Shown here: piece after piece, positions 9,635-32,000 of the stretch | Position numbering within the stretch: position 1 is the stretch's first letter | How the letters are laid out: every line of letters starts with the position of its first letter | Source: Marinagarivorans cellulosilyticus | GTDB lineage: Bacteria > Pseudomonadota > Gammaproteobacteria > Pseudomonadales > Cellvibrionaceae | Reading direction: 5' to 3' | Assembly (NCBI RefSeq): GCF_021655555.1 | Contig: NZ_AP023086.1 | Span: 1,579,182 to 1,611,181 of the forward strand | Length of the DNA stretch: 32,000 nucleotides | Program-made: the position numbers and the translations under genes | Notes under the pieces: generated by a model | What the model saw: only the letters and a program-made list of their open reading frames with translations | Databases searched by the model: none | What the model was told of the DNA's origin: nothing

Positions 9635-9968
9635 ATCAACTCAACATTAATGTATTCACTAAATTGTAATCTCCCTCTTATAAATCACGCGTTAATCTCG
9701 TGGCGTGATATAGCCTTTCAAATTTGCAAATCTTAATTCCAATTTTCATCCTTTCAAAATAAACCATTCAAGCCTAGCATGCACAACCTGAAAATATAGG
9801 TGCGCTTTTTTATTGTGTGGTTATGTTCCAATTCTGCTTTCTATTTGTCGAAAAATAATTATTAGCGTTGTCGTTGTAATTAAGTCTGCGTGAAATATCT
9901 TTCAGTGCTTTATAGGTTTCTGATTGGTCTTGCTGCGGAGTTCTTTGAGTTAAGTATTGGGTGTGAGG

Positions 9969-15900: not shown

Positions 15901-18900
15901 ACGGCGAAAAACCAAGTGGCCTAGTGGTAACAATTGATATTAATGATATTAGAAAACGCTGCAATCTGAAGCTGGAAAGAAAAGCGGTTTATGATCTTTT
16001 CTCGCAATTAAAGTTTGAGTACAAAACCGGCTATATGCCCCTTGAAGAGGTGTACTTGAATGACAAGGAAGCGCTATCTCGAATAACCCTTCCCGAGAAG
16101 TTCGAAAATAAAGAGTCAATAGTATTACACCCCTCTCTGCTGGAAGGAGGAATTCAAACAGTGATTGGGATTCTTTCTCATCCCAGCCACGACTCGAGTA
16201 GTGCGTACTTACCGTTTTCGATGAGCTCGATAACCATTAATGAGAAATTGTCGTCAGAGTGTTATATCCATGCCAAGCTGGTGAGTGATGAACTTAGCGA
16301 GCGAAGAGGGGTAAGGACATTTGATATAGATATTTATGATATCAGTGGAACACTACTCGTAAAAATTGAAGGGTACTCACTAAAAACGCTAAACGCACTA
16401 GCGGACAACGGTAATCAAACATCTCCGAGTGCATCAAATGTATTCCACTGTTTTAAGAAAACGTGGGCGCAAGAGCCGCTATCACCAATCGAGGGGTTCC
16501 ACTTTGAAACAATTTTGCTGTTTAGCAATGAGCAAGAGAGCGTCGATTTAATTCAGGCCCACATTGGGACTGATATTCGAGTGATCCAAGTTATGGAAGG
16601 CGATCGCTTTACAGAGTTGTCACCGAGCAAGTTTGTATCTAAAGGAGACAAGGAGAGCTTGTCAATATTGCTGGAACAAATTGGCGAGCCTTTAGATGCG
16701 ATAATATATGGGTGGGGCCACGAACGCGGAGCGACAGACGAAAGCAACGTAAACGAGCATATTGAACAAACAATTATTCCGCTCTTTAATTTATGCTCTA
16801 TTCTTTCAAACCCGATCTATAAAGGTATTAATCTTCGGTTGTTATGTTTGGCACATATTGACCACGGTGAAATTAACCCCGTACAAATGGGAATGGGAGG
16901 GCTTTTAAGATCGCTCTACCAAGAAACACGAGCATTGAAAGGCTCCTTGGTTTGTTTGGAAGCTTTGTCTGAGAATAATGTTAAGCCGCTGATAGCTGAA
17001 ATCGCTGCAGATCAATGTTATTCGGAGATCAAAATACAAGATGGTTCTAGGCAGGTTTTAAACTACAAAGCCAAATCAGTTCCAGTATTCATTGAAGAGA
17101 ATAAATTTCCCGTCAAACCACATGCAATATATTTGGTAACTGGTGGTACGGGTGCAATTGGTAGAAAAATTATCGAGCATCTGCATTCAATTGCAGGAGC
17201 TAAATTCATCGTTATCGGTCGTCGCCCTCTATCATCTGACGTTAAACTGGCGTGGAATAATAAGGGTGTTAATTATCAGTATCACAGTGCTGATTTAAAC
17301 CGCTTTGATCAGATTCAATCGATAATTCAGGGGTTGGGTGTTGATGCAAGTAAAATTAAAGGAGTAATTCATTGCGCGGGTAGCATTGATGATGGGCTAC
17401 TTTCCAAAAAATCGAGTGACCAAATTTATTCAGTCATCCAAGCTAAAGCTGTCGGGTTGTATACCCTCGATATACTAACCAAAAATATCCAGCTGGATTT
17501 TTTCTGCTGCTTCTCATCGATATCTTCGGTGATGGGGAATATGGGGCAGACGGATTATGGCTATGCCAATGCAGTAATCGATCAATTTGTAGAAAACAGA
17601 TCCCAGCAGTTTGAAAAAGGTGAGCGCAGTGGAGTTTCACTGAGTATTAACTGGCCTCTCTGGCTCGACGGTGGTATGCAAGCTGATGAGGTCGCGACAA
17701 ACTACTTCAAAAAGTCTACCGGAATACACCCAATAACCACGGAGACAGGCATGTCTATGCTAGCTTACGCGGTAAATAAAGAGAGCGGCCAAGTTATTTT
17801 AAGTGCAGGGGACGATAAGAAAATACTCGGTGCGATGAGTTTACGTTCAAGCATTCAAAATAAAAGCAAGCACAAGCCAAAATCAGAAGTTTTACTTAAA
17901 TCTGTAAAGGCGCCACTTTCTTGCGCAAGCGCCATGGACCAATCGAAAGCTAACTTATCTCAAACGGTTGTTGAAGAACTGATTACTATTTCTGAAGGTA
18001 TTCTAAAAGTTGATTCTGGGTCCATAACTCAAGATACACGTTTAGCTGATGCGGGCTTTGATTCGATAAGTAATACGGAATTAACCACTGCAATCAATGA
18101 TTTATACTCGGTTGATGTCACACCCATCATATTCTTTGAGTACGAAACCTTGGGCGAGGTCACAGAGTTTTTATTAAAGGAATATAGGGATAGCATCGTC
18201 GAACATTGTGGCGAACAGCCCAGCGCGGTCGATAATATTATTCTAGAAGCAACCGATAGTGAGCAGATAGGGGCTTCGGCTCATTCTTTAAGAGAGAATG
18301 GCGAAGCCCTCAAAGATCTTGTTATTGATGAGTTAAAAAGTTTATCCGCTGCGATTTTAAAAATTGGTAAAGAGCAAATATCGGCAGATGAAAAAATGGC
18401 AGACTTGGGCTTTGATTCCATATCCAATACGGAATTGAGCACTGCAATTAACGATGTCTTCGATGTGGATATGACCCCAGTCGTGTTTTTTGAGTGCGAT
18501 ACTCTCGCTGAGGTGAGTGAGCACTTGATTGATGAGTACAGCGAGAGTTTAGAGCGTTATGCGGATGAAAAAGGCCTTAGTCAGCAGGTAGAGCATAGCG
18601 AAAAGGTAAGTACACCCATTATAGCAAGTGAGAAAGAAAGCCTAAGTTCTAGTGAAGCGCCAAGCCCAGAGGCCAGCCGCCAAGATGGAAATGTTGCTTC
18701 AAAAAATATTACAACGAGTGATATTGCCATCGTTGGAATGCAAGCGGCACTGCCGGGCTCCAATGGGCTAGATGATTTTTGGGAAAAATTGTTGAGCGGA
18801 ACAGATTTTGTGGGCGAGATCCCTGAAAATCGCTGGTCCTGGCAAGAGGTGTATGGAGAAGCTGGGCCGGAAGGTAAAACTCGATCCAAATGGGGGGCCT

Positions 18901-21359
18901 TCCTAAATCACATTGATCAATTTGACGCAGATTTTTTTGGAATATCCGAGAGCGATGCGCAATTGATGGACCCACAGCAAAGAATGTTTTTGCAGCTTGT
19001 TTGGCACACGATTGAAGACGCGGGCTACAGTGTCGAGTCCTTCGCTGGCAGTAAAACAGGGTTATATGCCGGCCTTTCTAACCGAGATTATTCAGAATAT
19101 CTTGCCAAGCAAGGTGTTGGGCTGAGTCCACAAATGAGCTTTGGAAACAATAATGCTTTCCTGGTGAATCGAATTTCCTATTTACTGGATTTTAATGGCC
19201 CCAGTGAAGCAGTTGATACACTTTGTTCAAGTTCACTGGTGGCTCTACAAAGAGCAGTTCTGGATATTCAAAACGGAATTTGTGATCAGGCCGTTGTTGG
19301 CGGAATTAGCTTGTTAGTGAGCCCAAGATTAAGCTCCGTATTTGAGCAAGCGAGTATGCTAAGTGAGGATGGGCGCTGTAAACCTTTTGATGAGCATGCC
19401 AATGGCTTTGTCAGGGGTGAAGGAGGCGGTGCCATATTTGTTAAGCCCTTGGATAAGGCGGTTAGCGATGGCGACAATATACTCGCCGTTATCAAGGGTA
19501 GCTTTGTGAATCATGGCGGTAGAGCAAACTCGTTGACGGCACCTAATCTAAAAATTCAAAAACAGCTTTTCCAAGATGCCTATAAACGCGCGAAAATTAA
19601 TCCAGCAACTGTATCCTTAATTGAAACGCATGGAACAGGAACAAAATTAGGTGACCCCATTGAAATAAAAGCAATGAAAAAAGCTTTTGAGGAGTGGGGC
19701 GTTACTGAAGGCGGCACAGAAAAGGCTTGTGCTCTCGGCGCACTTAAATCGAATATAGGCCATCTAGAGTCGGCATCGGGTATAGCAAGCTTGATCAAAG
19801 TTTTACTGTGTATGCGCCACAAAACACTACCAAAACAGATTCACCTTCAAAAAGAAAACCCCTACTTGGAATTGAGTAAAACGCCTTTTTACCTAGTGAC
19901 GGAGAATCAGCCTTGGGTAGCCAAAACAGGTGGAGATGGAACCGTACAGCCGAGGAGAGCAGGCGTTACATCTTTTGGTGCAGGTGGGGTTAATGCTCAT
20001 ATCATCCTCGAAGAATATCTGGAGGAGTATATAGCCCCTCAACATGTTGATAACAATCCCATAAATTTGACAGAAGACACGATTGTTCTGCTTACCTTAA
20101 GCGCAAAGACTGACAAAAGCTTACGTCATTATGCGGCGGATCTATTAGCTTACATAAACAATCATACGGTTGATTTGACTGAATTGGCGTACACCTTACA
20201 GCAAGGTAGGTCAAACCACGCAGTCAAACTATCCATTGAAGTTGCTAATATTATTGAGCTTAAAGCCGCCTTGGAACCCTTTATTTCAGGTGAGCACTCA
20301 AGTCGGATCAGTTATTCGAAAAATGGCGAAATCGTATATCTCGCTCAGTCGAGCAGTGACAAACTAACACTGATTAACAAAAAATGGCTGAGTGGTGAAG
20401 TTGTAGACTGGAGCACGCTATATATCGATCAGCGTGTCAAGCGCATTTCATTACCAGGTTATCCATTCTCGAATAAATCCTACTGGGTAGAAAAGAAATC
20501 GTTTAAGCCGACTGCCAATGTTAATTTTGATAAACAAAACTATACAGAAAATTTTATAAATAAAGACTTCAACCAAGGTGAGGCCTATTTGGCTGGGCAC
20601 AAAGTATTTGGCGACGAAGTGTTACTGGGCGTGACCTACCCGTCTATGGCTATTGAGTTTTCACGTAATAACTCCAACGGGGCCAATATTAACAGCGTAA
20701 AAAATGTCGTTTTTAACGAGCCTTTGGTACTCGAAAAAAATAACTCTGCTCGAGTTGTTGTGAGCTATACCGGTAAGGATAAAGGCATAGATTTTAAAAC
20801 CTACTTTCAGGTTAAGGGAAGCCACGAGACAAAATTATCATCGGTTGGGCGTTTAACAAGCGGGCAGCTAAGTAATGACGTGTTACCCATCAGTGCATTG
20901 ATGAACAAGATCGCCTCGGTACATCAGCAAAACGAAGTCTACAAACTCCTACGAGATCAGGGCGTTGACTATTCGGGTAGCTTGTTAACGCTTCATCGCG
21001 TACTGCTTGGCGAGAATGTCGCTATCGGGGAAATTGAGCTAAGGGATGATTTAATCAATAGCACCTCTGACTACCAATTACACCCAGTCTGGTTGGACAG
21101 TGCCATTGTGTGTGGCAAGTTTGCATTCCTAAAAGATCAGGATGCTTTATACATCCCATTTAGCATCGACCAAATAACCTTTAAAACTAAGCCGAGCAGA
21201 AAATCCTACTGCGTGGTTAAGAAGACTTTACTCAACGAGCAGATTTTGAAGTTCGATGTGTCCATTTGTGATCGTTGGGGAACGGTTTCGGTTGAAGCAA
21301 AAGGAATGTCCTGTAAGAGAGTTTTAAGCCAAGGCCAATGGAGTAAGAAAAACGCGTGA
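9969..21359 (+). CDS. Hybrid NRPS / trans-AT PKS megasynthase: F, C(C-terminal lobe only), A, PCP, KS, DH, KR, ACP, ACP, KS, DH-like
   Basis: The track ORF is 9957-21359 with a TTG start. The first ATG is 9969 and GTG 9963 is also possible. Domains were read from motifs; nt positions are approximate. F domain 9984-10800 (INYHDGPLPKYGG, VDEGRII). C-terminal half of a condensation domain 10930-11580, with no HHxxxDG. A domain 11648-13100 (YTSGSTGKPKG 12084-12116, NMYGPTETT, YRTGD, GRMDNQIKLNGYRIELGEIE, LNGKVDRK). PCP 13270-13500 (GFNSLG, Ser codon 13380-13382). KS1 13695-14990 (DTACSSS with Cys 14196-14198, EAHGSGT, SNVGH). Flank of about 180 aa without an AT. DH1 15540-16400. KR 16480-17830 (TGGTGAIG, IDD, YGYAN). 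ACP 17955-18185 (Ser 18063-18065). ACP 18310-18545 (Ser 18417-18419). KS2 18720-20020 (DTLCSSS with Cys 19224-19226, ETHGTGT, SNIGH). Flank. DH-like 20560-21330. Stop 21357-21359. Confidence 0.93.
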   Translation: MDHQKFSCLIIGGTSLLIECANKWIVNGHVIKLVVTDDNDVERWAKGHDIEVIRKGSSDYLDRVMGMNFDYLFSIVNLDILPKAIINAPAILAINYHDGPLPKYGGIHATSWAIANQEPSHGISWHEMLIGVDEGRIINQQVFDIEEGESAFTLNLKCFEYAIEGFDQLVSSIEAGSLELISQDLSERSYVGKYKRPKQLAVIDWNRPSKEIVSFVKALDFEHVENPLGIAKVHINNRFFQVKEAQSTGTRSSGRPGVVESIGPNYVEVSTTTESVKLRDFKTLCGQELDFNSITNELKEGADLNFYCFDNEQTIYEESAKREVFWVRKYQEAVKVTKKKSGLPKEPSYRASIPLTDYEMDALQNNSIAAVISLLGAFIAWSRRGQGFCVGLRCSESPVEGYFFDTHPLVMEDASGMSFEDIASKIELQLREITKNEHCPIDIFSRYSSLNSQSVKGNCYEYDFIVDVNESIDYDNDYVLDDQVRLNLSLENNEWNVIAGPKFDKDLLERFTKYYSLFSSSITTKPSAKREALSGLSLISGAQIAEIDGLNDTRVAMPNKSVCEIILDKASETPNAIAVISSSTEYSYQQLQDRVSEISGCLISLGIKSGDRIGILLNRSFDMVAAFIATMKVSAVYVPLDPIYPPDRLQHMIEDSGLKVLISVENILSKLENYNGSSLLLDKDMFGGTDDLAQFPGIEDSAYIIYTSGSTGKPKGVEINHKSLTNFILSMAEEPGLSKDDHLLSVTTVCFDIAALEIYLPLTQGATLELCTEMEAKDGFALLEKLEQGRITALQATPTTWEMLIAAGWEGKEKIKAMCGGEPLRRELALKLIPRCFELWNMYGPTETTIWSSIKLIKDADEITVGRPIANTTMYVLDESLKPVWPGEKGELFIGGAGVAVGYWNREELTKERFVSQSIFNRSPERLYRTGDAAKLSTHNEVVCLGRMDNQIKLNGYRIELGEIESTIESISGIEKCVVILFESMGESKLHAFLLMDDEGKQPKVSELSASIATKLPEYMVPSEYQFVSEFSLTLNGKVDRKELLKRLDDRPPKTTAKDNLDLPQSNSIAYKQLEQNLEDNKGSTGSEAELKQAACARSVTGALYDLLANDLENIVKELIHLDDIDRDLPFGQYGFNSLGFTRFSAEIRNRYNVRVSPATFYSHSNLNKLVDFLIDGKYSAEISEYYREVLVENYRDVEEPLYSGDQDSDAQKGSSQNSGVSAMPLEDTKDGKHINGSFNSREPIAVIGMSVKMPQADNLDEYWENLISRKDCVTHIPESRWDWKNTDFEQRSENPYKWGGFIPHAASFDASFFKISPREAELMDPQQRLFLQASYHAIEDAGYCPDELNGSDTGVYVGVVTSDYWDLIQREDISPDGYTISGNINCVIANRISYHFNFTGPSSVIDTACSSSLVALHRAVQAMRSGECSQAVVGGVNIIASPYIHHSFSKNGMLSKDGRCMSFDHRANGYVRSEGIAAVILKPLSAAERDGDKIYGTILGTAENHGGKANSLSAPSGEAQSQLIQKAIKNANVDPNTISYIEAHGSGTPLGDPIEIAGIQNAYESLGVDSDHQDEICGIGSVKSNVGHLEAVAGLAGLVKVLLSLKNEVIPGMPNYEAKNPHIDLNENLFQFVSRPREWKRKSGVGNGAGRRAGVSSFGFGGVNAHVIVEEYQARDESQSGNRANALLISAPNKDKLERLVQQYLVHTLSDGGNTWEEICYTSQVGRQHFDERLIVCAASKQQAKNALEKHVDRWGSANEVLSGNVREQKEILDKLFSNIGNTSIVKTLIEQKQFNSIAQFWLAGSEVNWRALYEAAKIKRASLPLHPFAQTTFWLPNKSTHLFEAELQNAIRENSHLDHPFYDSLAASCGNLIFSLDPKDPIVGDHIVDSKVIFPAVGYLEFARLAGDQFNRENLNLPVVKLKNNVWFHALDVGFHESNKKLSIRLENRKSKVVYTIESMSELSSGQVHARGEIEYGEKPSGLVVTIDINDIRKRCNLKLERKAVYDLFSQLKFEYKTGYMPLEEVYLNDKEALSRITLPEKFENKESIVLHPSLLEGGIQTVIGILSHPSHDSSSAYLPFSMSSITINEKLSSECYIHAKLVSDELSERRGVRTFDIDIYDISGTLLVKIEGYSLKTLNALADNGNQTSPSASNVFHCFKKTWAQEPLSPIEGFHFETILLFSNEQESVDLIQAHIGTDIRVIQVMEGDRFTELSPSKFVSKGDKESLSILLEQIGEPLDAIIYGWGHERGATDESNVNEHIEQTIIPLFNLCSILSNPIYKGINLRLLCLAHIDHGEINPVQMGMGGLLRSLYQETRALKGSLVCLEALSENNVKPLIAEIAADQCYSEIKIQDGSRQVLNYKAKSVPVFIEENKFPVKPHAIYLVTGGTGAIGRKIIEHLHSIAGAKFIVIGRRPLSSDVKLAWNNKGVNYQYHSADLNRFDQIQSIIQGLGVDASKIKGVIHCAGSIDDGLLSKKSSDQIYSVIQAKAVGLYTLDILTKNIQLDFFCCFSSISSVMGNMGQTDYGYANAVIDQFVENRSQQFEKGERSGVSLSINWPLWLDGGMQADEVATNYFKKSTGIHPITTETGMSMLAYAVNKESGQVILSAGDDKKILGAMSLRSSIQNKSKHKPKSEVLLKSVKAPLSCASAMDQSKANLSQTVVEELITISEGILKVDSGSITQDTRLADAGFDSISNTELTTAINDLYSVDVTPIIFFEYETLGEVTEFLLKEYRDSIVEHCGEQPSAVDNIILEATDSEQIGASAHSLRENGEALKDLVIDELKSLSAAILKIGKEQISADEKMADLGFDSISNTELSTAINDVFDVDMTPVVFFECDTLAEVSEHLIDEYSESLERYADEKGLSQQVEHSEKVSTPIIASEKESLSSSEAPSPEASRQDGNVASKNITTSDIAIVGMQAALPGSNGLDDFWEKLLSGTDFVGEIPENRWSWQEVYGEAGPEGKTRSKWGAFLNHIDQFDADFFGISESDAQLMDPQQRMFLQLVWHTIEDAGYSVESFAGSKTGLYAGLSNRDYSEYLAKQGVGLSPQMSFGNNNAFLVNRISYLLDFNGPSEAVDTLCSSSLVALQRAVLDIQNGICDQAVVGGISLLVSPRLSSVFEQASMLSEDGRCKPFDEHANGFVRGEGGGAIFVKPLDKAVSDGDNILAVIKGSFVNHGGRANSLTAPNLKIQKQLFQDAYKRAKINPATVSLIETHGTGTKLGDPIEIKAMKKAFEEWGVTEGGTEKACALGALKSNIGHLESASGIASLIKVLLCMRHKTLPKQIHLQKENPYLELSKTPFYLVTENQPWVAKTGGDGTVQPRRAGVTSFGAGGVNAHIILEEYLEEYIAPQHVDNNPINLTEDTIVLLTLSAKTDKSLRHYAADLLAYINNHTVDLTELAYTLQQGRSNHAVKLSIEVANIIELKAALEPFISGEHSSRISYSKNGEIVYLAQSSSDKLTLINKKWLSGEVVDWSTLYIDQRVKRISLPGYPFSNKSYWVEKKSFKPTANVNFDKQNYTENFINKDFNQGEAYLAGHKVFGDEVLLGVTYPSMAIEFSRNNSNGANINSVKNVVFNEPLVLEKNNSARVVVSYTGKDKGIDFKTYFQVKGSHETKLSSVGRLTSGQLSNDVLPISALMNKIASVHQQNEVYKLLRDQGVDYSGSLLTLHRVLLGENVAIGEIELRDDLINSTSDYQLHPVWLDSAIVCGKFAFLKDQDALYIPFSIDQITFKTKPSRKSYCVVKKTLLNEQILKFDVSICDRWGTVSVEAKGMSCKRVLSQGQWSKKNA

Positions 21360-21360
21360 T

Positions 21361-21601: not shown

Positions 21602-24600
21602 GTGTCAAAGTACTTTAAAGCAATAGACCGGTATGCCGTAGGGCATGCCAACATGATGATTAAATACCGATTTATAGTGGTAGCAATTTGTATTGCTGTG
21701 GCAATGGGAATTGCCTATGGCGGTAAGTTTTTGAATTTCTCCTCCGATTACCGAGTGTTCTTCTCGGGAAGCAATCCGGAGCTTAATACTTTCGAAAGCT
21801 TCCAAAAAACCTACACAAAGAACGATAACTTTTTCTTTGTCCTAGAGCCAAAAGACGGAAACGTATTTACCAATCAAACCCTGCGTGCAGTCGAAAAACT
21901 AACAGAACAATCTTGGCACATTCCGTTTGTTAATCGTGTTGATTCGCTTAGTAATTTCCAAAATTCTTACAACGTCGGTGACGATCTTGTTGTAGAAGAT
22001 TTGATATATCAAGCGGAGGGCCTTTCCGGGAGCGCGATTAGAAAAATTCGTGAAACAGCACTCAACGAACCGTTACTGGCAGATTTGCTAATCACTAAAA
22101 GTGGTGATGCAACGGGCATCAATGTTGTCTTGCAGTATCCAGGGAACAGCCTGTACGAGGTACCTACAGCGGCAGCAAAGGCACGAGAGCTTAAGGCTGC
22201 CATAGAAACAGAATTCCCAGATATTGATGTGTCACTAACTGGGTTTTCAATGTTGAATAATGCGTTTGCTGAAGCGGGCTACTTGGATTCTATTAAGCTA
22301 GTACCGGTGATGTATGCGGTACTTACATTTATTACTTTGGTTGCACTTAGGTCATTTTTAGCGACTTTTGTCGTGGTGGGCATTGTGTATTTATCCATGG
22401 GCGTTGGAATGGGAGCGGGTGGCTTTGGTGGAGTACTCCTTACGCCAATTTCTAACTCTGCACCAATCGTAATTTTAACGCTGGCTATCGCAGATTGCGT
22501 CCATATATTTATGACAATCAATATGGCAATGAAGAGAGGGCTATCAAGAAACGAAGCAATTGTAGAGTCAATTAGATCAAACCTAATGCCTGTTACTATT
22601 ACTTCGCTAACAACCATTGTTGGTTTTATGGCGTTAAACTTTTCAGATGCACCACCTTATTGGCATTTGGGCAATATGGCCTCTGCCGGTATAGCCGCTG
22701 CATGGATACTGTCGTTGACTTTATTGCCTGCGGCTATCTCCATATTACCTTATCGTGTGAAGAAAAAATCTAAGGCAGCGTTATCTGAGGTATATATTAC
22801 AAAATTCTCGAAATTTGTATCGTCTAACCCTAAGACCCTTGTATCAACTTGCGTGTTAGCTTGTTTAGCGTCATTGGCATTTGTTCCATCCATTGACCTA
22901 GATGACCAATGGTCCGACTATTTTTCGAAGGAAATTGAGTTTAGAAATGATACCGATCAAGCAACGACCAAATTTGGCTTATACCCCATCGAATACTCAG
23001 TACCTGCTAGCGGGCCTGGTGGTATTAGTAATCGAGAGTATTTAACGAAGCTAGAAGAGTTCACCTCGTATTTGCGTGGCCTCGATAATGTGGCTCACGT
23101 CTACTCTGTCACCGATATCATTAAGCGTCTCAATAAAAACATTAATAATGATAAGGACGAGTTTTACAAAATTCCCCAGGTCGATAATGAAGCCGCTCAA
23201 TACCTTCTTCTTTATGAGCTATCTCTTCCGTACGGCTTAGATTTAAATGATCGTATAAATATTGATAAATCCGCGACTCGCGTGACGGTAACTTTAGGTA
23301 AAACATCAACCTCTGAGACAAAGGTCTTCCTGAATACGGCGGACGAATGGATTGCTAAAAATTTCCCTGCATATATGAAAGAAACAAGGCCGACGAGTGC
23401 TCAGGTTATGTTTACTTACATTGCTGACCGAAATGTCCAGAGCATGATAGCGGGAACAATCATTGCCATCGTACTAATCTCGATTATTCTTATTTTTGCT
23501 TTAAGAAGTGTGCGCTTGGGTTTACTCAGTCTCGTACCCAATGCATTACCTATTATCACTGCCTTTGGGGTATGGGGCGTTCTTGTTGGTACGGTGGGCT
23601 TTTCAGTAGCCGCTGTGGCAGCAATTTCATTAGGTATTGTGGTGGATGATACTGTTCACTTCCTAACGAAATACGAAACCGCGCGAAGAGAAAAGGGATT
23701 ATCACCGGCAGAGTCCGTCGAATATTCATTTCAAAATGTAGGTTTGGCCATAGTTATCAATACTTTCATATTAGTTATTGGGTTCTTGGTAATGGCCAGC
23801 TCCTCCTTCAAGATCAATTCCGATCTAGGATATTTGACAGTAATTACTATCGTCGCGGCTCTAATTCTTGATTTTCTATTATTACCCTCACTTTTATTAT
23901 TGCTCGATAAAAAGAAGGAGCCAGCAATGGACGAAAAGACTGTTTCAGGTACCGTTTCTCCGGGAATTTCTATTTCTACTACTGTCGGCGCCACGTTGCT
24001 CTTTATTGCCGTCATAGGCGCCTCGGTAAGTGTGCCCGTAATCGCGCAAGCGAATGAAGACAAGGGCTATCGAATTTCTGCTATGTCGGATCGAAGTGAT
24101 AGGGGTTTTATTAGTAGCGATGTCTCTTTGCAGATGGTTCTTCACAATAGTACTGGCAACAAGGCAACGAGAGACCTACAAATAAAAACTTTGGAAGTAA
24201 TAGACGAAAACCTAGGTGATAAAAGTATCGTTATCTTTAGCGAGCCAAATGATATTGCCGGCACCGCTTTGTTATCTCACGCGAAAATACTCGATGCGGA
24301 CGATCAGTGGTTATACCTGCCGACCCTTAAGCGTGTTAAGAGAATTTCGTCAAAGAACAAATCTGGGCCTTTTGTGGGTTCAGAGTTTGCCTTTGAGGAT
24401 TTCACAGCGTTAGAACTCAATAAATATTCTCACGAATGGGTGGAGGAGCAAGCCTGCGCAGAGCTCAAGTGTGATGTCATCAAGCGCATTCCTCAATATG
24501 AATTTTCCGGCTACAAGCATCTTCTTGTGTGGATTGATCAGAATGATCATCAGGTGAGAAAAGTTGAGTTTTACGACCGAAAAGGAGACTTGCTTAAGAC

Positions 24601-24772
24601 TCTAAATCTAGAAGACTACCGCAAGTACGGGAGTTACTGGCGGGCACATGCGCTTCATATGATAAATCATCAAACGAATAAGAAAACCGATCTCATTTAT
24701 GGTGACTATGCATTTAGCACAGATTTGAGTGCTCGAGATTTCGAGAAGGGTAGGTTGAAGCAGATCCGGTAG
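21602..24772 (+). CDS. RND-superfamily (MMPL / COG1033-type) exporter permease fused in frame to a LolA-like outer-membrane lipoprotein-sorting domain
   Basis: GTG start 21602 with AGGGGGA 7 nt upstream. The N-terminus IDRYAVGHANMMIKYRFIVVAICIAVAMG and the following DYRVFFSGSNPEL are typical of this exporter family. There are two pseudo-repeated TM bundles (...PIVILTLAIADCVHIF... and ...ISLGIVVDDTVHFL...), each following a large periplasmic loop. From about aa 776: MDEKTVSGTVSPGISISTTVGATLLFIAVIGASVSVPVIAQA, then a soluble domain of about 240 aa (DDQWLYLPTLKRVKRISSKNKSGPFVGSEFAFEDF...) matching the LolA-like sorting-protein family as I recall it. Confidence 0.85.
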   Translation: MSKYFKAIDRYAVGHANMMIKYRFIVVAICIAVAMGIAYGGKFLNFSSDYRVFFSGSNPELNTFESFQKTYTKNDNFFFVLEPKDGNVFTNQTLRAVEKLTEQSWHIPFVNRVDSLSNFQNSYNVGDDLVVEDLIYQAEGLSGSAIRKIRETALNEPLLADLLITKSGDATGINVVLQYPGNSLYEVPTAAAKARELKAAIETEFPDIDVSLTGFSMLNNAFAEAGYLDSIKLVPVMYAVLTFITLVALRSFLATFVVVGIVYLSMGVGMGAGGFGGVLLTPISNSAPIVILTLAIADCVHIFMTINMAMKRGLSRNEAIVESIRSNLMPVTITSLTTIVGFMALNFSDAPPYWHLGNMASAGIAAAWILSLTLLPAAISILPYRVKKKSKAALSEVYITKFSKFVSSNPKTLVSTCVLACLASLAFVPSIDLDDQWSDYFSKEIEFRNDTDQATTKFGLYPIEYSVPASGPGGISNREYLTKLEEFTSYLRGLDNVAHVYSVTDIIKRLNKNINNDKDEFYKIPQVDNEAAQYLLLYELSLPYGLDLNDRINIDKSATRVTVTLGKTSTSETKVFLNTADEWIAKNFPAYMKETRPTSAQVMFTYIADRNVQSMIAGTIIAIVLISIILIFALRSVRLGLLSLVPNALPIITAFGVWGVLVGTVGFSVAAVAAISLGIVVDDTVHFLTKYETARREKGLSPAESVEYSFQNVGLAIVINTFILVIGFLVMASSSFKINSDLGYLTVITIVAALILDFLLLPSLLLLLDKKKEPAMDEKTVSGTVSPGISISTTVGATLLFIAVIGASVSVPVIAQANEDKGYRISAMSDRSDRGFISSDVSLQMVLHNSTGNKATRDLQIKTLEVIDENLGDKSIVIFSEPNDIAGTALLSHAKILDADDQWLYLPTLKRVKRISSKNKSGPFVGSEFAFEDFTALELNKYSHEWVEEQACAELKCDVIKRIPQYEFSGYKHLLVWIDQNDHQVRKVEFYDRKGDLLKTLNLEDYRKYGSYWRAHALHMINHQTNKKTDLIYGDYAFSTDLSARDFEKGRLKQIR

Positions 24773-24777
24773 TTTTA

Positions 24778-25962
24778 ATGCAAATGTATCAGAGAAATTT
24801 GGCGAGATTAACACTGTGCGTAGCTTCTCTTTTTACTGTTGAGGTTTACGCTGATGATCTAAGTCTCGGTGGAAGTGTGGGGTTCGAGCATCGACACTTT
24901 TTCGAATCTCCACAATACGAGGAGCAATCTAAAAGTGTAAGTACTGAGGTTGTATTTGAACCGGAACTGGCTTTTAGCTTAGGCAGGAACAACCAGTTTT
25001 CTTTCAAAGGGTTTGTTCGCGAAAACAGTGAGGACGAACAAAGAAATCACAGTGATATTCGTGAGCTTTATTGGAATTATCAGGGTGATTTATTCGATCT
25101 GACTGTTGGGGTGAACAAGATCCATTGGGGTGTTGTTGAGTCGCTAAATGTTGTGAATATTATTAATCAGATTGACTATGTGGAAGACATCTCCTTGGAT
25201 GAAAGGTTGGGCCAGCCAATGCTTGGAATAAGCGCCACAAATGACTGGGGCACTATCTCGGCATATTGGTTAACTCACTTTAGGGAGAGAACATTTCCTG
25301 GCGAGAAAGGGCATTTCAGACTTTCTCTACCAGTAGATGTGAATAATGCAGAATATTCTGGCGTTGAAAAGAATGACCATAAAGACCATGCGCTTCGGTA
25401 TTCTCATTATTTTGGAGATCTTGATGTGGGACTCCACTGGTTTAATGGAATCGACAGAAGCCCAGAATTCCGGGTAGATGCGGATCGATTAATTCCTGTC
25501 TACAGTCATTTAGAGCAGTTTGGTTATGATTTTCAATACACCTTTGATGCTTGGTTACTAAAAGCTGAGGGCGTTTATAAGACAAAGAGTCAAGAGAGTT
25601 CCTATTCGTTAGTGACTGGCCTGGAATATACCATTTTTCAGTTTTTTGGGGGCACGGGTGATCTCGGTTTTTTATTTGAGTACCTCTACGACAGCCGAGA
25701 AGCCGTTGATCCTCTTTTCGAGAACGATGCGTTTATCGGCCTTCGATACGTTATGAATAATGTTCAGGATACAACCTATTTAATTGGTGCGATAAGGGAC
25801 TCCAAAACCAGTGAAACTGTCGTTAACCTAGAATTCACCACAAGAGTTGGCTCCCAATTTTTACTGGAAGTTAATGGTATTTATTTTGATAACGCGGAAT
25901 ATTCGTTTCAAAGTTTTGCGAAAGATAGCAGTGTGTCTTTAAACCTAAGTTGGCACTTTTGA
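24778..25962 (+). CDS. Outer-membrane beta-barrel (porin-like) protein
   Basis: The signal peptide is MQMYQRNLARLTLCVASLFTVEVYA|DD. Amphipathic strands alternate, aromatic residues are abundant, and the C-terminus is ...SLNLSWHF, ending in Phe. The start is 6 nt after the stop of the exporter gene. The family is not assigned. Confidence 0.7.
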   Translation: MQMYQRNLARLTLCVASLFTVEVYADDLSLGGSVGFEHRHFFESPQYEEQSKSVSTEVVFEPELAFSLGRNNQFSFKGFVRENSEDEQRNHSDIRELYWNYQGDLFDLTVGVNKIHWGVVESLNVVNIINQIDYVEDISLDERLGQPMLGISATNDWGTISAYWLTHFRERTFPGEKGHFRLSLPVDVNNAEYSGVEKNDHKDHALRYSHYFGDLDVGLHWFNGIDRSPEFRVDADRLIPVYSHLEQFGYDFQYTFDAWLLKAEGVYKTKSQESSYSLVTGLEYTIFQFFGGTGDLGFLFEYLYDSREAVDPLFENDAFIGLRYVMNNVQDTTYLIGAIRDSKTSETVVNLEFTTRVGSQFLLEVNGIYFDNAEYSFQSFAKDSSVSLNLSWHF

Positions 25963-26039
25963 ATGATCATCTTTGATTAAGCAGGGTACAACCTAGTAAT
26001 AGCAATTAATTTAGTCTTTAACTAATGCAGGATTATGTT

Positions 26040-29000
26040 ATGGAGAGGATGATAGAGTCTAGAAAAATGGCTGGTAAAAATACGAGCCAATCAATGGTTG
26101 ATTATCTGATTAGGCGGATTGAAGTGATTACGAAATCGTCTATCACTAAATCTGATTTAAAAAAGAACATAATGGATTTAGGTGTTGACTCTATTGGCCT
26201 AGTGAATATTGTGGATGATATTAAAAAGGAATTCGATATTGACCTGCAACCCACAATATTCTTCGAGTATCAGAGTATTTCTGAATTATCAACATACTTG
26301 ATAGACGAAGTTGGAAGTGCTGATGCACCGGCAGCCGCTGCCAACGTTAAAGAGACATATTCGTATATCGAACAACCCGATAAAAAATTTGAATCTCAAG
26401 AATTGCAGAGTAGGAGAGGTCACGCTGCGTCGTTTGTTCGGGATGCCAGCGAAGGTGATTTGGAGGATCTGTTCAATGCTTTTCAGGGTGCTGAGGGCGG
26501 TTCTAATTACCAGGATGCGAGCAAAAGCTACGCAAAACCTAAAGTAAAAGCCGAATTGGAAGATATCGCGGTTATCGGAATGGCTGGTAAGTTTTCCGGC
26601 TCAGATAATGTGAATGAGTTCTGGGAAAATATATCTAGCCAGAAAGACTTATTTAGTAAGGTTCCTAGCGACAGATTTGATTACGCGCAGTGGGCATCAG
26701 AGAATTATGATCTGGCAGATAAAATATACTGCGATCGCGGGAGCTTCATTTCTGATGTAGATAAGTTTGACGCTTCTTTTTTTAATATTCCCCCAAAAGA
26801 AGCCGCGATCTTAGATCCTCAGCTCAGACTATTACTGCAAGTTATTTATGAATCGATAGAAGATGCTGGCTATGCAAATAAGATAAGGGGAACAAACACC
26901 GGTATGTATGTTGGTGCTTGTTTTCACGATTACGAACTAGAACTGGTAAGGAACATGGGCGAGATGAGCCCCTATTTTGGGACTGGTAATGCCCTCACAA
27001 TGTTGGCGAATCGACCATCCTTTTATTTGGATTTAAAAGGGCCGAGTTTACCTTTGGACACTGCTTGCTCAGCCTCGTTAGTTGCCGTTAACGCAGCGCT
27101 GCAAGCTTTAAGAAATGACGAATGTGAAATGGCTTTTGTTGCCGGTACTAATTTACTTCTGAGTCCGCTTCATTATCGATACTTTTGTGCCATTGGCGCA
27201 CTATCTAAATCTGGAAATAGCTTCCCTTTTGACTCTCGAGCCGACGGTTATTTGCCTGGGGAGGCCGTGGGGGCTGTTTTACTCAAGCCACTTGAAAAGG
27301 CAAAGCGTGATGGGGATGAGATCCACGCAGTCATTAAGAGCGCCGCTGTAAATCACGGTGGTTATAGTGCTTCGTTCACTGCGCCCAATGTTTCGCAAGA
27401 AGCCGCAGTGATTAAAAAAGCGCTGTACGCTGGTGGTATCCCCGCAGAAAGTATTTCCTATATTGAAGCGCATGGAACGGGCACCTCGCTCGGCGATCCA
27501 ATAGAAGTTCAGGGTTTAAAGCAAGCTTTTAAAGGCGTAAATACTGATATTGCGCAATGTGCCCTCGGGACCACCAAGGCTCATATTGGGCACGCTGAAG
27601 GTGCTGCAGGTATAGCTGGGCTAATTAAAGTGATATTAGCCATGAAAAATAAAACAATCCCTGCAATGCCTCACCTCGAAGAGATTAACCCCTATATCAA
27701 TATGGAAGGGTCCCCTCTGTACATCAATAGACAAAATAAAAAATGGGAAGCCAATAGCGGATTTCCTAGAAGAGCAGGAATTAGCTCCTTCGGTATCGGT
27801 GGTGCCTATGCGCATATTGTTGTAGAAGAGTACGAGCAAGAGGAAATTGCAAACACTGCGCCTGACGAAAAGGATTCGGTGTTTGTGCTTTCAGCACGAA
27901 GTGAAGAGGTTTTACGCTCCTATTCAAATAATATTGCTGACTATGTTGAGGAGCAGTATTTAGGGGGGGGCATTAGTGGCTTGTACTCACCGAGTAAACT
28001 TTCCGAGTTTATTTTATCTGAAACTGGCAAAGATATCCCGGAAACCAGCTACGACGAGCACCTATTGGATCTGGGCTTTGATATATATGATTATGTAAAA
28101 ATCGCCGATCGCCTTTCTCGTGAGATGAACTCCAATGTGAGCGCTCGAATTATTTCACTACACCCAACGCTCTTCAAATTGGCTAACTTTCTTTCTGGTT
28201 CAGAAAATGTTGAAACGCCAAGGGTACGAGTGAGTGATCTTGCTTACACCATGCAGGTGGGCAGAGAGGCTATGCCATATCGTTTGGCTATTGTTACACG
28301 CGACCACGAAACACTCATCGAAGAATTAAGAAGTTTCTCCAAAAATACTCAAAGTGGACAAGCCTGTTTTTATAATTTGGGCCAGAAATCCGATCAATGG
28401 AGTGAGCTACTAGAGACCCAAGAGGGTGAAGGGTTTCTAAAAACGCTACTGGAATCTGGTAATCAAACGCATCTAGCAAAGCTTTGGGTTAATGGCGTTG
28501 ACGTACCCTGGGGAAGCACCACTGCTGAAAAAAGACGACTGGTAAAGCTACCCTCTTACCCTTTCCAAAAAGTTCGCTTTTGGTATTCCGAAGAAGTAGC
28601 GGTACAGCCCAAAAATAAAGAAAAAATCATAAATATTGTTGATCAGGTACGCAAGAAAGAAACGACAGCGGATATCCTTAAAGATATATGGATGACGTAC
28701 TTGTCTGTGGAATCGATTAATGAGAATGATAATTTCATGGCGTTGGGTGGGACTTCAATTAATTCGACCCAAGTTGTGGTAGAAATCAACAGACGCTTCG
28801 ATACAAATATCACTGTCGGTGAATTTGGCCAATGCAAGGATTTGGGCGAGTTATCATCCATTGTTGAATCGCGCAAAAAGCCTGAGCGTGCTGATAGCTC
28901 TAGCGTCAGTACCCTAGTTCGGAGTATTACTTCCTCTAATAAAAAGCAAGGTAAGCTGAGTTCCGATCAGATGAGGCTTTGGGTTTTGTCCCAAATGTAT

Positions 29001-32000
29001 CCAAATAACCACCGTCATAATATTTCATCGGCGTATGAAATAACCGCCGCACTCAATCCGTCAATTCTTCAAGAATCAATGGATATTGTAGTAGCTACCC
29101 ACGGTTCAATAAGAACTCGTTTTGGCACCAAAGACGGTGTTCCTTATCAGGATATCGTCGATACATCCAAAATCAAAATTACATTCCACGACAATGTCCA
29201 GTCGAGAGCACAAGCCTTAGACATCATCAACGAAGCAGCAAAAAGACCTTTTGAACTCGACAAGGCAGAACTTGTTCGTGTGACGGTAATTAATGAAGGT
29301 GGCGTAGTAATTCTTTCAATCATTGCTCATCACATTATTGCAGATATTACGTCTGTCGATGTTATTGCGAAAGATCTAATTACTACCTACAGCGCGTTAA
29401 CAAACGGTAGCAAAGGTGAAAGTATTGACTTAGGCCGTGCACAATTTCTAGACTATATTTCCTTGTCTGCGGATTCCAAAATAAAGACGAAGTCTCAGGA
29501 CATTAGTTTTTGGAGGGAGTATCTAAAAGATGCACCTAACGAGATTACCTTGCCTTTCGACAGCCCGCGCGGTGAAAGTCACTCTCATAATTCCAAGCAG
29601 CTTCACTTTGAACTGGGTAAGGAGCACGTTAACTTGGTGCGCAATACCGCCAAGTCACTATCAATTACTCCTTTTATATTAACCTATTCGGTTTTTAACG
29701 TCGTATTTTCGGAATTGTGCCAACAGCACGACTTCCTTATCGGGGTGCCAAACGCGAATAGGCATTTACCCGATAGCCAAGATATGGTTGGTTTTTTGGC
29801 GAATACTTTGGTCTTAAGGTCTAAGGTTACTCAAGAACAAGACTTCGAGTCTTATACCAAGGATGTTAAAAATGATCTTTATAATGTCTTTGACCATCAA
29901 AATATGGGGTTTGGTGATATTGCCGCGGAACTGAAAGTCCCATCACCTAAAAACCATAATCCAATGTTTCAAATACTCTTCAATATGATTAATCGCGATG
30001 AGTATTTACTGCAAGAAAATGGAATTAGCCTAAAAACCCTCCCGATTCCATTGGTCACCCTAGATTTTGATATTCTATTTTCGGTGGATATCATGGGGGA
30101 GCGTTTGCGTGTCTCCATGGATTTCGATTCGGATCTATTTGAGACAAAAACTGTAGAATCGATTTTAAACGCTTTTGAGCTTGCGCTTGGATACACCCTT
30201 GATATCTTAAGCCGAGGCGAAAGCCTGGTTTGTTCTTCGATTGGCGCACTGTGCAAACTGTGTGACACGAAGGAAAATGAGCGAAATGAGGAAGGAAAAT
30301 TACTCATTTCATCTACCTTTACGGCTGAGCCGCTGTCCGAAACGCTTAATTTTTGGCTGGATAAAGTCGGCTTAAACCTAGGCCTCGACTATGCGCCTTA
30401 CAACCAGGTGTTTCAGCAACTACTTGATCCTTCGCAAGGCTTATACAGTAACCCGAAGGGCGTGAATACTGTTCTGGTCCGTTTAGATGATTGGCTGCGC
30501 TTCAATCGACAGAATAGTTCCGTCGGCTCCGTTGATGAAGAGTTAAATCGAATTCTTGATGATTTCGAAAAAGCGCTGATTCAATATGGAAGTTCAGTTT
30601 CCACTGCGCTCGTGGTAGTGCTGCTGCCCACGAATCAGGAAAATTCTAAAGAGCATTTGCTTCGTGAAAGGGTGGAAAAAGTCGCCAGCGGTTTTAGCAA
30701 TATCAATGTCCTAGGGAGCGACGAGATAGACGCCTATTACTCTGTCGACGAAAAGTTTGACTCAGTTGCAGACAGCGTTGGTCACGTGCCCTTTACATCT
30801 AGCTATTTTTCGGCGATTGGTACCGCACTTGTACGCAGCGTTAGGTCGCACTTTCTCAGTCCGTATAAAGTGATTGTAGTCGATTGTGATAACACGCTAT
30901 GGAAGGGGGTCGTTGGTGAACTCGGCTGTGAGGGAATCCAAATTGACCCCGCACGCCAAAAATTACAAGAGTTTCTAGTCGAGCAGAAAAATGCGGGTGT
31001 TTTATTGTGTGTTGCCAGTAAAAATGTCGAGGAGGATGTTGCTTCCGTATTTGGTCAGCGAACAGATATGCCACTTAAGTCAGACGACGTTGTTCTTTGG
31101 AAGGTTAATTGGGACGCGAAATCAAAGAATATCATTGAGATGTCTAACGAGCTTAATTTGGGTTTGGATAGCTTCGTCTTTATTGATGACAACCCAATTG
31201 AGTGTGCGGAAGTATCTGCCGCTTTACCCCAAGTATTAACCATTCAATTCCCTCAAGAATCGAAAGAGATTGAGTCCATGTTGAATTCGCTTTGGGACCT
31301 AGACCGTAAAGGGGTCTCAGGGGAAGACTCGAAGCGTACTGACCTTTATCAGCAGAATATTAAACGCGATAAAGCCTTAAAGAATTCTAGCTCTTTTCAG
31401 GATTTCATCGATAGCTTGGAGCTTCAAATTGATTTTCAGCCGGTCGATGACAGCACTATAGGGCGCGTAAGCCAGCTGTTTTTGCGTACCAACCAATTTA
31501 ATGCGACAACCCGGCGGCACAGTCAATCGCAGTTGGAACAGATGATTCGAGATCGCGGTTACGAATGCACGACGGTCTCGGTAAAGGATCGGTTTGGAGA
31601 ATACGGTTTAGTTGGCGTTTTGCTGTATAGCTTTAATAAAGATTGTGTTGTTCTCGATAGTTTTTTGCTGAGCTGTCGTGTGCTAGGTAAGGGCGTTGAG
31701 CACCGAATGATCAATGAGGTGGCAAAGAAGGCATCTCAAAGAAGCGTGGCAAGTGTGCAACTGGACTTTGTTGAAACCGAAAAAAATATTCCAATTAAGA
31801 AGTTTTACGATTCAATAAAGCCTTCTAGCTGGGATCCCCAGGAGCACAAGTACCTCATTAAGGTTGAAGATGCGTTGCGCTTTAAGTTTAATCCAGAGTT
31901 TAAATCGCAGGATGTTAACGAACAACCTAAGGTAATTGAAACTTTCAATAATAAATCACCCGTCGAAATGGCTGAGGTGGCCTTAAATCTCAATTCTATC
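26040..32000 (+). CDS. Hybrid trans-AT PKS / NRPS megasynthase, 5' part (open at the right edge): ACP, KS, flank with Ser-less carrier-like insert, T, C, FkbH-like
   Basis: Not in the ORF track because it has no stop in the window. My codon-by-codon translation from ATG 26040 (AGGA 7 nt upstream; ATG 26049 and 26067 are alternatives) is open for 1987 codons to nt 32000. ACP about 26090-26310 (MDLGVDSIG, Ser 26190-26192). KS3 26559-27835 (DTACSAS with Cys 27066-27068, EAHGTGT, KAHIGH). Flank 27840-28590 (LAYTMQVGREAMPYR...LPSYPFQKVRFW). T 28650-28870 (FMALGGTSI, Ser 28755-28757). C 28955-30250 (AHHIIAD 29328-29345). FkbH-like 30290 to beyond 32000 (VVDCDNTLWKG with Asp 30882-30884; FIDDNP; LLSCRVLGKG with Cys 31674-31676). 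Confidence 0.9.
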   Translation, partial: MERMIESRKMAGKNTSQSMVDYLIRRIEVITKSSITKSDLKKNIMDLGVDSIGLVNIVDDIKKEFDIDLQPTIFFEYQSISELSTYLIDEVGSADAPAAAANVKETYSYIEQPDKKFESQELQSRRGHAASFVRDASEGDLEDLFNAFQGAEGGSNYQDASKSYAKPKVKAELEDIAVIGMAGKFSGSDNVNEFWENISSQKDLFSKVPSDRFDYAQWASENYDLADKIYCDRGSFISDVDKFDASFFNIPPKEAAILDPQLRLLLQVIYESIEDAGYANKIRGTNTGMYVGACFHDYELELVRNMGEMSPYFGTGNALTMLANRPSFYLDLKGPSLPLDTACSASLVAVNAALQALRNDECEMAFVAGTNLLLSPLHYRYFCAIGALSKSGNSFPFDSRADGYLPGEAVGAVLLKPLEKAKRDGDEIHAVIKSAAVNHGGYSASFTAPNVSQEAAVIKKALYAGGIPAESISYIEAHGTGTSLGDPIEVQGLKQAFKGVNTDIAQCALGTTKAHIGHAEGAAGIAGLIKVILAMKNKTIPAMPHLEEINPYINMEGSPLYINRQNKKWEANSGFPRRAGISSFGIGGAYAHIVVEEYEQEEIANTAPDEKDSVFVLSARSEEVLRSYSNNIADYVEEQYLGGGISGLYSPSKLSEFILSETGKDIPETSYDEHLLDLGFDIYDYVKIADRLSREMNSNVSARIISLHPTLFKLANFLSGSENVETPRVRVSDLAYTMQVGREAMPYRLAIVTRDHETLIEELRSFSKNTQSGQACFYNLGQKSDQWSELLETQEGEGFLKTLLESGNQTHLAKLWVNGVDVPWGSTTAEKRRLVKLPSYPFQKVRFWYSEEVAVQPKNKEKIINIVDQVRKKETTADILKDIWMTYLSVESINENDNFMALGGTSINSTQVVVEINRRFDTNITVGEFGQCKDLGELSSIVESRKKPERADSSSVSTLVRSITSSNKKQGKLSSDQMRLWVLSQMYPNNHRHNISSAYEITAALNPSILQESMDIVVATHGSIRTRFGTKDGVPYQDIVDTSKIKITFHDNVQSRAQALDIINEAAKRPFELDKAELVRVTVINEGGVVILSIIAHHIIADITSVDVIAKDLITTYSALTNGSKGESIDLGRAQFLDYISLSADSKIKTKSQDISFWREYLKDAPNEITLPFDSPRGESHSHNSKQLHFELGKEHVNLVRNTAKSLSITPFILTYSVFNVVFSELCQQHDFLIGVPNANRHLPDSQDMVGFLANTLVLRSKVTQEQDFESYTKDVKNDLYNVFDHQNMGFGDIAAELKVPSPKNHNPMFQILFNMINRDEYLLQENGISLKTLPIPLVTLDFDILFSVDIMGERLRVSMDFDSDLFETKTVESILNAFELALGYTLDILSRGESLVCSSIGALCKLCDTKENERNEEGKLLISSTFTAEPLSETLNFWLDKVGLNLGLDYAPYNQVFQQLLDPSQGLYSNPKGVNTVLVRLDDWLRFNRQNSSVGSVDEELNRILDDFEKALIQYGSSVSTALVVVLLPTNQENSKEHLLRERVEKVASGFSNINVLGSDEIDAYYSVDEKFDSVADSVGHVPFTSSYFSAIGTALVRSVRSHFLSPYKVIVVDCDNTLWKGVVGELGCEGIQIDPARQKLQEFLVEQKNAGVLLCVASKNVEEDVASVFGQRTDMPLKSDDVVLWKVNWDAKSKNIIEMSNELNLGLDSFVFIDDNPIECAEVSAALPQVLTIQFPQESKEIESMLNSLWDLDRKGVSGEDSKRTDLYQQNIKRDKALKNSSSFQDFIDSLELQIDFQPVDDSTIGRVSQLFLRTNQFNATTRRHSQSQLEQMIRDRGYECTTVSVKDRFGEYGLVGVLLYSFNKDCVVLDSFLLSCRVLGKGVEHRMINEVAKKASQRSVASVQLDFVETEKNIPIKKFYDSIKPSSWDPQEHKYLIKVEDALRFKFNPEFKSQDVNEQPKVIETFNNKSPVEMAEVALNLNSI
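27963..27970. repeat. G8 homopolymer inside the megasynthase coding sequence
   Basis: Direct count: tta ggg ggg ggc, encoding L-G-G-G. Confidence 0.95.

Follow-up and report, generated by a model that had tools for sequence, protein, structure and literature searches.

We analysed a window of 32,000 nt from the genome of Marinagarivorans cellulosilyticus (contig NZ_AP023086.1, positions 1,579,182 to 1,611,181), in which the gene of an inner-membrane exporter of the resistance-nodulation-division (RND) type and the gene of a LolA-like periplasmic carrier form one open reading frame (ORF). It is almost certain that this is a real and recurrent fusion which has inherited the start signals of its partner: a Shine-Dalgarno (SD) sequence, an ATG and a signal peptide lie between the last permease helix and the carrier. 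From comparison of the sequences we read the product, with a modest preference, as a polyprotein, in which the internal signal peptide would export and probably release the carrier, and to which internal initiation would add free carrier.

The fused reading frame

An earlier note, made from the letters of this DNA alone, had claimed that the frame runs past the C-terminus of the permease into MDEKTVSGTVSPGISISTTVGATLLFIAVIGASVSVPVIAQA and NEDKG. The sequence and translation of 21602..24772 bear this out: the product reads ...LLPSLLLLLDKKKEPA-MDEKTVSGTVSPGISISTTVGATLLFIAVIGASVSVPVIAQA-NEDKG... from the last permease helix into the carrier and contains no stop. The in-frame ATG that the note placed at 23927-23929 is there, and so is the out-of-frame TAA at 23908-23910. 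The AAGGAG is present as well, but it lies at 23915-23920 instead of 23914-23919, which leaves 6 nt, not 7 nt, before the ATG.

For the permease part, Pfam gave a match to MMPL (PF03176; 120.4 bits, cut-off 20.5) at aa 67-411 and in a second stretch. The scores for TIGR00921 (HAE3; 159 vs cut-off 351.9), TIGR03480 (HpnN; 96 vs 752) and NF052374 (42 vs 1100) all stay below the cut-offs, and the permease is related to HAE3 and HpnN yet outside both curated NCBIfam families. In the AlphaFold2 (AF2) model, the predicted local distance difference test (pLDDT) is about 80 over aa 1-770, and both the pump and the carrier domains are modelled confidently. Foldseek placed MmpL4, MmpL5, MmpL3 and HpnN nearest to the permease part (E 1e-24 to 1e-18, target-normalised TM-score (TMt) 0.6-0.79, 13-16% identity), and the model predicts a fold of 12 transmembrane (TM) helices with two periplasmic loop domains like those of solved RND lipid exporters. 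Among 26 homologues D298 is nearly invariant and H301, D682, D683 and H686 are invariant; these residues may form a proton relay of the TM4/TM10 type. The carrier domain matched Pfam LolA_like (PF17131, now named TP_0789-like) at aa 873-1053 with 189 bits (cut-off 30), and PDB entry 3BK5 with E=4.5e-66, 46% identity and TMt 0.91, which gives it an open beta-barrel fold of the LolA type. The coordinates of all features are collected in Table 1.

Table 1. Features of the fused gene and of its neighbours in the window.
Feature	Position	Strand	Description
Fused ORF	21602..24772	+	1056 aa, start GTG 21602; RND permease, linker, internal signal peptide, LolA_like domain
MMPL/HAE3-type RND permease body	21602..23908	+	aa 1-769; from Pfam, AF2 and Foldseek
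Last permease TM helix (TM12)	23810-23908	+	aa 737-769, AF2 model
Out-of-frame TAA	23908..23910	+	stop lying outside the exporter frame
KKK 770-772	23909..23917	+	positive cluster 3' of TM12 and 5' of the internal Met
AAGGAG SD	23915..23920	+	codons K772-E773; spacer to ATG 6 nt
In-frame internal ATG (M776)	23927..23929	+	candidate start of a free 281-aa LolA_like precursor
n-region of internal signal peptide (M776-T794)	23927..23983	+	19 aa, net charge -1, atypical
h-region (V795-A807)	23984..24022	+	hydrophobic, within a 36-aa uncharged run
c-region SVSVPVIAQA (S808-A817)	24023..24052	+	predicted signal peptidase I site AQA/N, A817/N818
Mature LolA_like (TP_0789-like, PF17131) periplasmic domain (N818-R1056)	24053..24769	+	Pfam core aa 873-1053, nt 24218-24760
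Outer-membrane beta-barrel gene	24778..25962	+	394 aa, signal peptide, C-terminal ...SWHF
Polyketide megasynthase	9957..21359	+	3800 aa; formyltransferase-like, AMP-binding, acyl carrier protein (ACP), ketosynthase (KS), dehydratase (DH), ketoreductase (KR), ACP, ACP, KS, DH
Open frame running off the window	26022..32000	+	at least 1993 aa; presumed second megasynthase gene

The fusion is genuine

One possibility raised in the earlier note was a sequencing or assembly artefact, in which a missed indel hides a stop, such as the TAA at 23908-23910, and there are really two ordinary genes. The two-gene arrangement of most relatives and the position of this TAA just 5' of the junction would fit such an error. 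The comparison with other sequences refutes it. The fused ORF is one annotated gene in the complete 5.3-Mb genome of M. cellulosilyticus (BCD97034.1/WP_236986512.1, 1039 aa, start ATG 21653), and the cluster of the fused protein also holds two 1056-aa calls from independent 33-kb ENA metagenome contigs. The product of the next gene downstream is 100% identical to a protein of M. cellulosilyticus. The best 120 database homologues are all fused (1027-1092 aa, 53-99% identity), and those at 69%, 61% and 53-57% identity share length and frame; they come from Cellvibrio, Marinicella, Woeseiaceae, Thiodiazotropha and others. Besides, out-of-frame stops are frequent by chance, and no sign was found that the TAA has ever been read, with the homologues keeping the fused ORF. 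Slippage in the A-run named in the note could not bring this TAA into frame, since the run lies 3' of it; for that, an indel would have to fall upstream of 23908. The pump-carrier fusion is genuine, and the artefact is excluded, with a negligible probability left to it.

Fused and separate forms in related loci

The survey drew on 160 related loci, taken from species-representative genomes and metagenomes, in which we located the pump C-terminus and the LolA-like domain by tblastn; the counts of fused and split forms rest on the 146 complete loci among them. It turned out that 121 of the 146 loci are split into two genes and 25 are fused, which agrees with the statement in the earlier note that the LolA-like partner is usually a separate neighbouring gene. 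The extra-long matches in L023, L100, L105 and L109 were traced to a distant RND paralogue upstream, and an insertion as their cause was ruled out. When the LolA-like domain alone was used for the search, the 150 nearest 50%-identity cluster representatives included 11 full-length fusions and roughly 15 truncated ones (about 15-17% fused), and most of the 150 were free-standing proteins of 250-300 aa. Five LolA_like proteins (P0258, P0295, P0298, P0309 and P0357; 390-610 aa) have a long, low-complexity N-terminal extension rich in Pro, Ala and Glu, and no pump.

In two-gene loci the carrier has its own signal peptide beginning with M-K. Its start overlaps the pump 3' end in 43 of 106 split loci and lies at most 15 nt from the pump stop in 17 more, while its SD is inside the pump ORF in 60 of the 106. 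There are 23 split loci in which pump and carrier are in the same frame with exactly one stop between them (TAA 12, TGA 9, TAG 2), including L002, L003, L011, L012, L015, L018, L053 and L081-L084. For example, the junction of L003 reads ...gct TAA tcAGGAGacacactc ATG, and removal of the stop would give the linker S-G-D-T-L-M, which is the G-x3-M pattern of the fusions.

A neighbour-joining tree was built on the concatenated pump and carrier sequences, with states assigned by parsimony. Its root state is split and nine state changes are needed, so fusion arose repeatedly. Two split loci, L016 and L028, are nested inside an otherwise fused deep clade; L016 keeps the mature N-terminus of this clade (VTPVQGKTPEE) with the frame shifted, which reflects either a gene that was secondarily re-split or an erroneous frameshift in a metagenome-assembled genome.

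These loci suggest how the junction may have formed. In the common ancestral arrangement, the pump and carrier genes would have been translationally coupled, with the ribosome-binding site (RBS) of the carrier lying within the end of the pump gene or immediately behind it. Once the pump stop codon was lost, or the frames merged, the SD, ATG and signal peptide of the carrier would have become an in-frame linker.

The internal start signals

The fused ORF contains 21 in-frame ATGs and 56 in all frames, among which only the one at 23927 reaches an anti-SD duplex energy of -8 kcal/mol or lower (-8.0). The next-best ATG has -5.3 kcal/mol, and the annotated gene start at 21653 only -3.4. The spacing of 6 nt between AAGGAG and ATG lies inside the range of 5-9 nt that we used for initiation. 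Across the 146 loci, the median energy is -7.4 kcal/mol for fused carrier starts, -6.4 for split ones and -1.7 for more than 4000 other internal ATGs of the same genes, of which 3-5% reach -6 kcal/mol or lower. The folding energy of the mRNA from -30 to +30 around 23927 (-8.3 kcal/mol) is close to the background (-9.5 +/- 4.0), and speaks neither for nor against initiation. An internal promoter was also considered and rejected, with one sigma-70-like match in 23300-24300 vs 1.9 expected.

The comparative evidence is clearest for 15 loci that make up a deep fused clade (Marinicella-type, Woeseiaceae-type, Hahella and others), whose proteins share 61-87% amino acid identity and whose four-fold sites, with an identity of 0.21-0.40, are near saturation. 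GGAG-N8-start codon is kept in 13-14 of the 15 loci. The Gly codon is GGA in 13 of 15, vs a usage of 13.6% in these genes (binomial 4e-10), and the start column holds only ATG or GTG, all four Val codons being GTG vs a usage of 26%. The AAGGAG of the window and the GGAG of the deep clade share their codon offsets (-4/-3), and G-x3-M or G-x3-V is found in 100 of 121 fused proteins, the linker being otherwise unalignable. Because the SD and start are kept despite near-saturated synonymous sites, internal initiation is probably functional in the deep fused clade, and this nucleotide-level constraint indicates selection for it.

The clade of the window is mixed. The window and its 99% twin have AAGGAG-6-ATG with -8.0 kcal/mol, and in the two Cellvibrio relatives (69% identity) the pair is GAGGT-ATG, placed five codons downstream of that position, with -6.5 to -7.1 kcal/mol. 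In this clade the start is kept in three of eight lineages. Dual expression, which the earlier note listed as one option, is thus best supported by the comparative data where the deep clade is concerned, with mixed support nearer to the window. For M. cellulosilyticus itself, we consider internal initiation somewhat probable on sequence grounds.

The internal signal peptide

The description of the segment in the earlier note as a classic Sec signal peptide is right for two of its three parts. The hydrophobic core and the c-region, VGATLLFIAVIGA-SVSVPVIAQA/N (the slash marks the predicted cut), have Pro at -6 and the small residue Ala at -3 and -1 before the site A817/N818. The n-region does not fit: it is 19 aa long, and from M776 it has a net charge of -1, the one negative value in a comparison that covered 25 fused homologues and 106 separate ones. 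A product starting at M776 has no positive n-region at its N-terminus, the KKK being upstream of the Met. The acidic n-region suggests that the segment has begun adapting to life as an internal element.

To describe the c-region we used a strict motif: a polar residue or helix breaker, a small residue at -3, Ala at -1 and a polar residue at +1, after the hydrophobic core. It is present in 108 of 120 fused proteins, 23 of 25 fused loci and 73 of 94 split precursors, vs 28% of ordinary RND hydrophobic segments. The strict motif with Pro in the c-region is found in 42-56% of fused forms, 22% of split ones and 1.5% of ordinary RND segments. By eye, the pattern is also kept in fusions that have lost the internal start (for example VKA/D, VNA/Q, AQA/T and VEA/Q), including those of the window's clade that have no linker Met, and each of the 11 full-length sequences that represent diverse fused lineages has an AxA-like site, where -3 and -1 are small and the next residue is polar. 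In some fused lineages the h-region has only 13-16 residues flanked by charges, the length of a signal peptide rather than of a TM helix. In the AF2 model, aa 771-818 are without secondary structure (pLDDT 23-39) and there is no packed 13th helix.

From these features we are inclined to favour cleavage by signal peptidase I after AQA (A817/N818) over a permanent tether. This is a fourth option, missed by the earlier note, and such cleavage would make the ORF a polyprotein.

Weighing of the alternatives

Several observations weigh against a polyprotein with internal initiation, and two other readings draw on them. All of the LolA-like domain might come from the full-length polypeptide, the SD and ATG being an undecayed relic that is silent or inconsequential here. 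In five of the eight lineages of the window's clade the fusion functions with the start lost or weak; in L162, L163, L164, L165 and L008 (57-69% identity) the start codon is absent or the SD is weak, so internal initiation is dispensable there and possibly a decaying relic. The linker Met is likewise absent from 5 of 11 diverse fused cluster representatives, and where the start is missing, as in many fused lineages, the fused polypeptide must suffice alone. Furthermore, the net charge of -1 from M776, with the positive residues moved 5' of the Met, looks adapted to the fused state, and a free precursor from M776 would be predicted to be a poor Sec substrate. On the other side, AAGGAG-6-ATG is the strongest SD-ATG pair of the ORF and beats the annotated gene start, the constraint on SD and start in the deep sister clade is clear, no sequence feature bars initiation and the local mRNA structure is average. 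Internal SDs are also generally depleted in coding regions, according to one study (PMC5100845). Expression of the fusion only is therefore a possibility to which we give a rather low weight. The SD-like sequence might also act in elongation, by a pause which aids TM12 insertion or as a frameshift stimulator at T-AAA-AAG (23908-23914). This heptamer, directly 5' of the SD, resembles the slippery -1 site of dnaX, A-AAA-AAG. Frameshifting there was rejected: the -1 frame meets a TGA near 24053 after about 48 codons, which specify no recognisable product, and the heptamer is not conserved in relatives, whereas SD and start codon at fixed spacing are. The M-to-V changes at the start column, always to GTG, are meaningful for initiation alone, and a role in elongation is very improbable.

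The other alternative concerns the fate of the carrier after export. As the earlier note proposed, the former signal peptide could be an uncleaved 13th TM helix holding the LolA-like domain on the pump, in parallel with the substrate-binding domains that are tethered to some ABC importers. The topology of this proposal is consistent, and some data speak for it and against cleavage: the apolar run has 22 residues in fused vs 17 in split forms (p=8e-9), and the segment in the window has a 36-aa uncharged run, its best stretch of 19 residues (about 0.6 kcal/mol) matching several true TM helices of the protein in hydrophobicity, in an approximate comparison on the Hessa scale. A simple AxA test ([AV]-x-A or small-x-small in 19 positions after the hydrophobic core) was dropped as non-discriminating (fused 61-64%, split 77%, RND segments 43%), and the stricter motif took its place. 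The disorder of the linker in AF2, from an alignment of 26 sequences, is weak evidence, which goes weakly against an integrated TM helix and is not decisive. Nevertheless, c-regions of the signal-peptidase type in about 90% of fusions, their persistence where the linker Met is gone, h-regions too short for a stable TM helix in several lineages and the lack of helix or packing at aa 771-818 argue against a tether, and a carrier bound for an outer-membrane barrel would be expected to diffuse. The data thus leave the topology of the note in place and turn from its permanent tether, which we regard as possible but unlikely.

Proposed working

In the polyprotein reading with internal initiation, translation from the pump start would give a polypeptide of 1056 aa, whose chain would be in the cytoplasm after TM12, where KKK 770-772 is placed by the positive-inside rule. 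Topology and sequence suggest that the former signal peptide would insert as a 13th hydrophobic segment and take the LolA-like domain into the periplasm. Signal peptidase I would then probably cut after AQA and leave a soluble carrier in a ratio of 1:1 with the pump. In addition, the strong internal AAGGAG-6 nt-ATG would probably recruit ribosomes directly and yield extra free carrier precursor. Judging from synteny, the carrier would take over the hydrophobic product of the flanking polyketide synthases (PKSs) at the pump and ferry it to the conserved outer-membrane beta-barrel of the adjacent gene.

Tentatively, selection may maintain two carrier routes from one ORF, the cut polyprotein, which would ensure one carrier per pump at the place of insertion, and the internal RBS for an excess. 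Losing the single stop between coupled genes would have produced this arrangement repeatedly, on about seven to nine occasions. We hold this extension to be rather doubtful. If true, the two routes would be a natural and recurrent means of setting stoichiometry in an envelope-spanning lipid export system.

The export module and its neighbourhood

The 394-aa protein encoded directly downstream matched no Pfam family. Its model is a confident beta-barrel with a predicted 16-18 strands, similar to porins and AlgE, and the protein has 748 database homologues at E<=0.001; it looks like an undescribed family. A homologue of the barrel is found directly downstream of the carrier in 118 of the 132 related loci with room for it, and the carrier family comprises more than 4000 clusters at 50% identity. 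By sequence and synteny, the conserved module is an inner-membrane pump, a periplasmic carrier and an outer-membrane barrel.

In the window the module lies between two megasynthase genes, the second one presumed, an arrangement that suggests a lipid-like natural product as the exported substance; the 3800-aa megasynthase, whose AMP-binding domain is of the acyl-AMP ligase type, probably supplies the lipid that is exported in this genome. Cellvibrio sp. ARAG 10.3 (L161) has the same synteny, with genes for PKS and non-ribosomal peptide synthetase (NRPS) at the matching place, and other members of the window's clade have no synthases at the locus. In L163, L164 and L165 (61% identity), the upstream genes are not PKS genes; they encode anthranilate-synthase-like proteins (Chorismate_bind and GATase), glutathione S-transferase (GST) and flavin adenine dinucleotide (FAD)-dependent monooxygenase, which hints at a different exported product.

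Most of the gap of about 290 nt that separates the PKS stop (21359) from the annotated exporter start (21653) is taken up by a GTG-started ORF of 80 aa at 21356-21598. This ORF matches no family, no equivalent is called in the Cellvibrio locus, and it is probably not a gene.

What is known and what appears to be new

Novelty does not lie in the fusion itself, since database annotation already shows the fused architecture and one proteomics paper has remarked on it. As far as a limited search of the literature goes, three points appear to be new: that the joint consists of the start region, still intact, of what used to be the downstream gene, that many fusions arose from a state one stop codon away, and that the internal SD and start appear to be selected in at least one old fused clade, with the signal-peptidase site kept in nearly all fusions. 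As a clean natural system, the locus lends itself to the question of how bacteria balance the amount of a membrane pump against that of its soluble partner in the periplasm, and can show how internal signal peptides within polytopic proteins are handled. It is also a warning for annotation, since two or three species of protein may come from what is listed as a "single" gene of this kind. Besides, it defines a widespread and uncharacterised three-part module of RND pump, LolA-like carrier and beta-barrel.

Comparison with known systems

The closest relatives are the separate-gene modules of RND pump, LolA_like (PF17131) carrier and beta-barrel in Proteobacteria and other phyla, which have the same three proteins in the same order. 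Their carrier has the same layout of SD, ATG and signal peptide, often overlapping the pump 3' end; in the window the pump stop is absent, and pump and carrier are one ORF. We know of no demonstrated substrate for these modules.

A similar architecture is described for TOL_3187 of Thalassolituus oleivorans MIL-1, a single protein with two MMPL domains along with one LolA-like domain, which was detected by proteomics and induced on the n-C28 alkane, together with its neighbour TOL_3188, a predicted porin without a recognised domain (PMC6304351). This pair resembles the pair in the window in architecture, likened by domain description, but its context is alkane degradation and that of the window is a polyketide cluster. 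In our searches of the literature on LolA-like/RND fusions and TP0789, this proteomics work provided the sole experimental data on the fused architecture, and no functional study of the LolA_like/TP_0789-like family was found. For the carrier, the similar fold of 3BK5, a putative outer membrane lipoprotein-sorting protein of Vibrio parahaemolyticus, is a structural-genomics entry.

The nearest solved folds of the permease part are the mycobacterial MmpL3, MmpL4 and MmpL5 and the Burkholderia HpnN, which export lipids made by adjacent synthases; one paper describes a coupling of MmpL7 to PKS (PMC1238737). These proteins differ from the fused exporter in having no LolA-like domain; they are partnered by MmpS, by AcpM or by no protein, and share little sequence identity with it.

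For the junction itself, two kinds of precedent can be compared. In E. coli, ArcB-C is a diffusible copy of the C-terminal domain of a membrane protein and is made from an in-frame internal start which is conserved in orthologues (bioRxiv 10.1101/520783). As in the window, the SD and start lie exactly at the domain boundary. Unlike ArcB-C, the internal product of the window would begin with a signal peptide and be exported, and its site has demonstrably been the start of a gene that was once separate. The cytochrome b-c1 precursor FbcH of Bradyrhizobium japonicum is a polytopic protein with an internal signal peptide, from which signal peptidase makes two proteins. FbcH resembles the window in having one ORF with an internal signal peptide after a polytopic protein; for the window, cleavage is predicted from conserved c-region features. 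The present case combines both kinds, the internal start and the internal signal peptide, in a transporter-carrier fusion that has arisen repeatedly.

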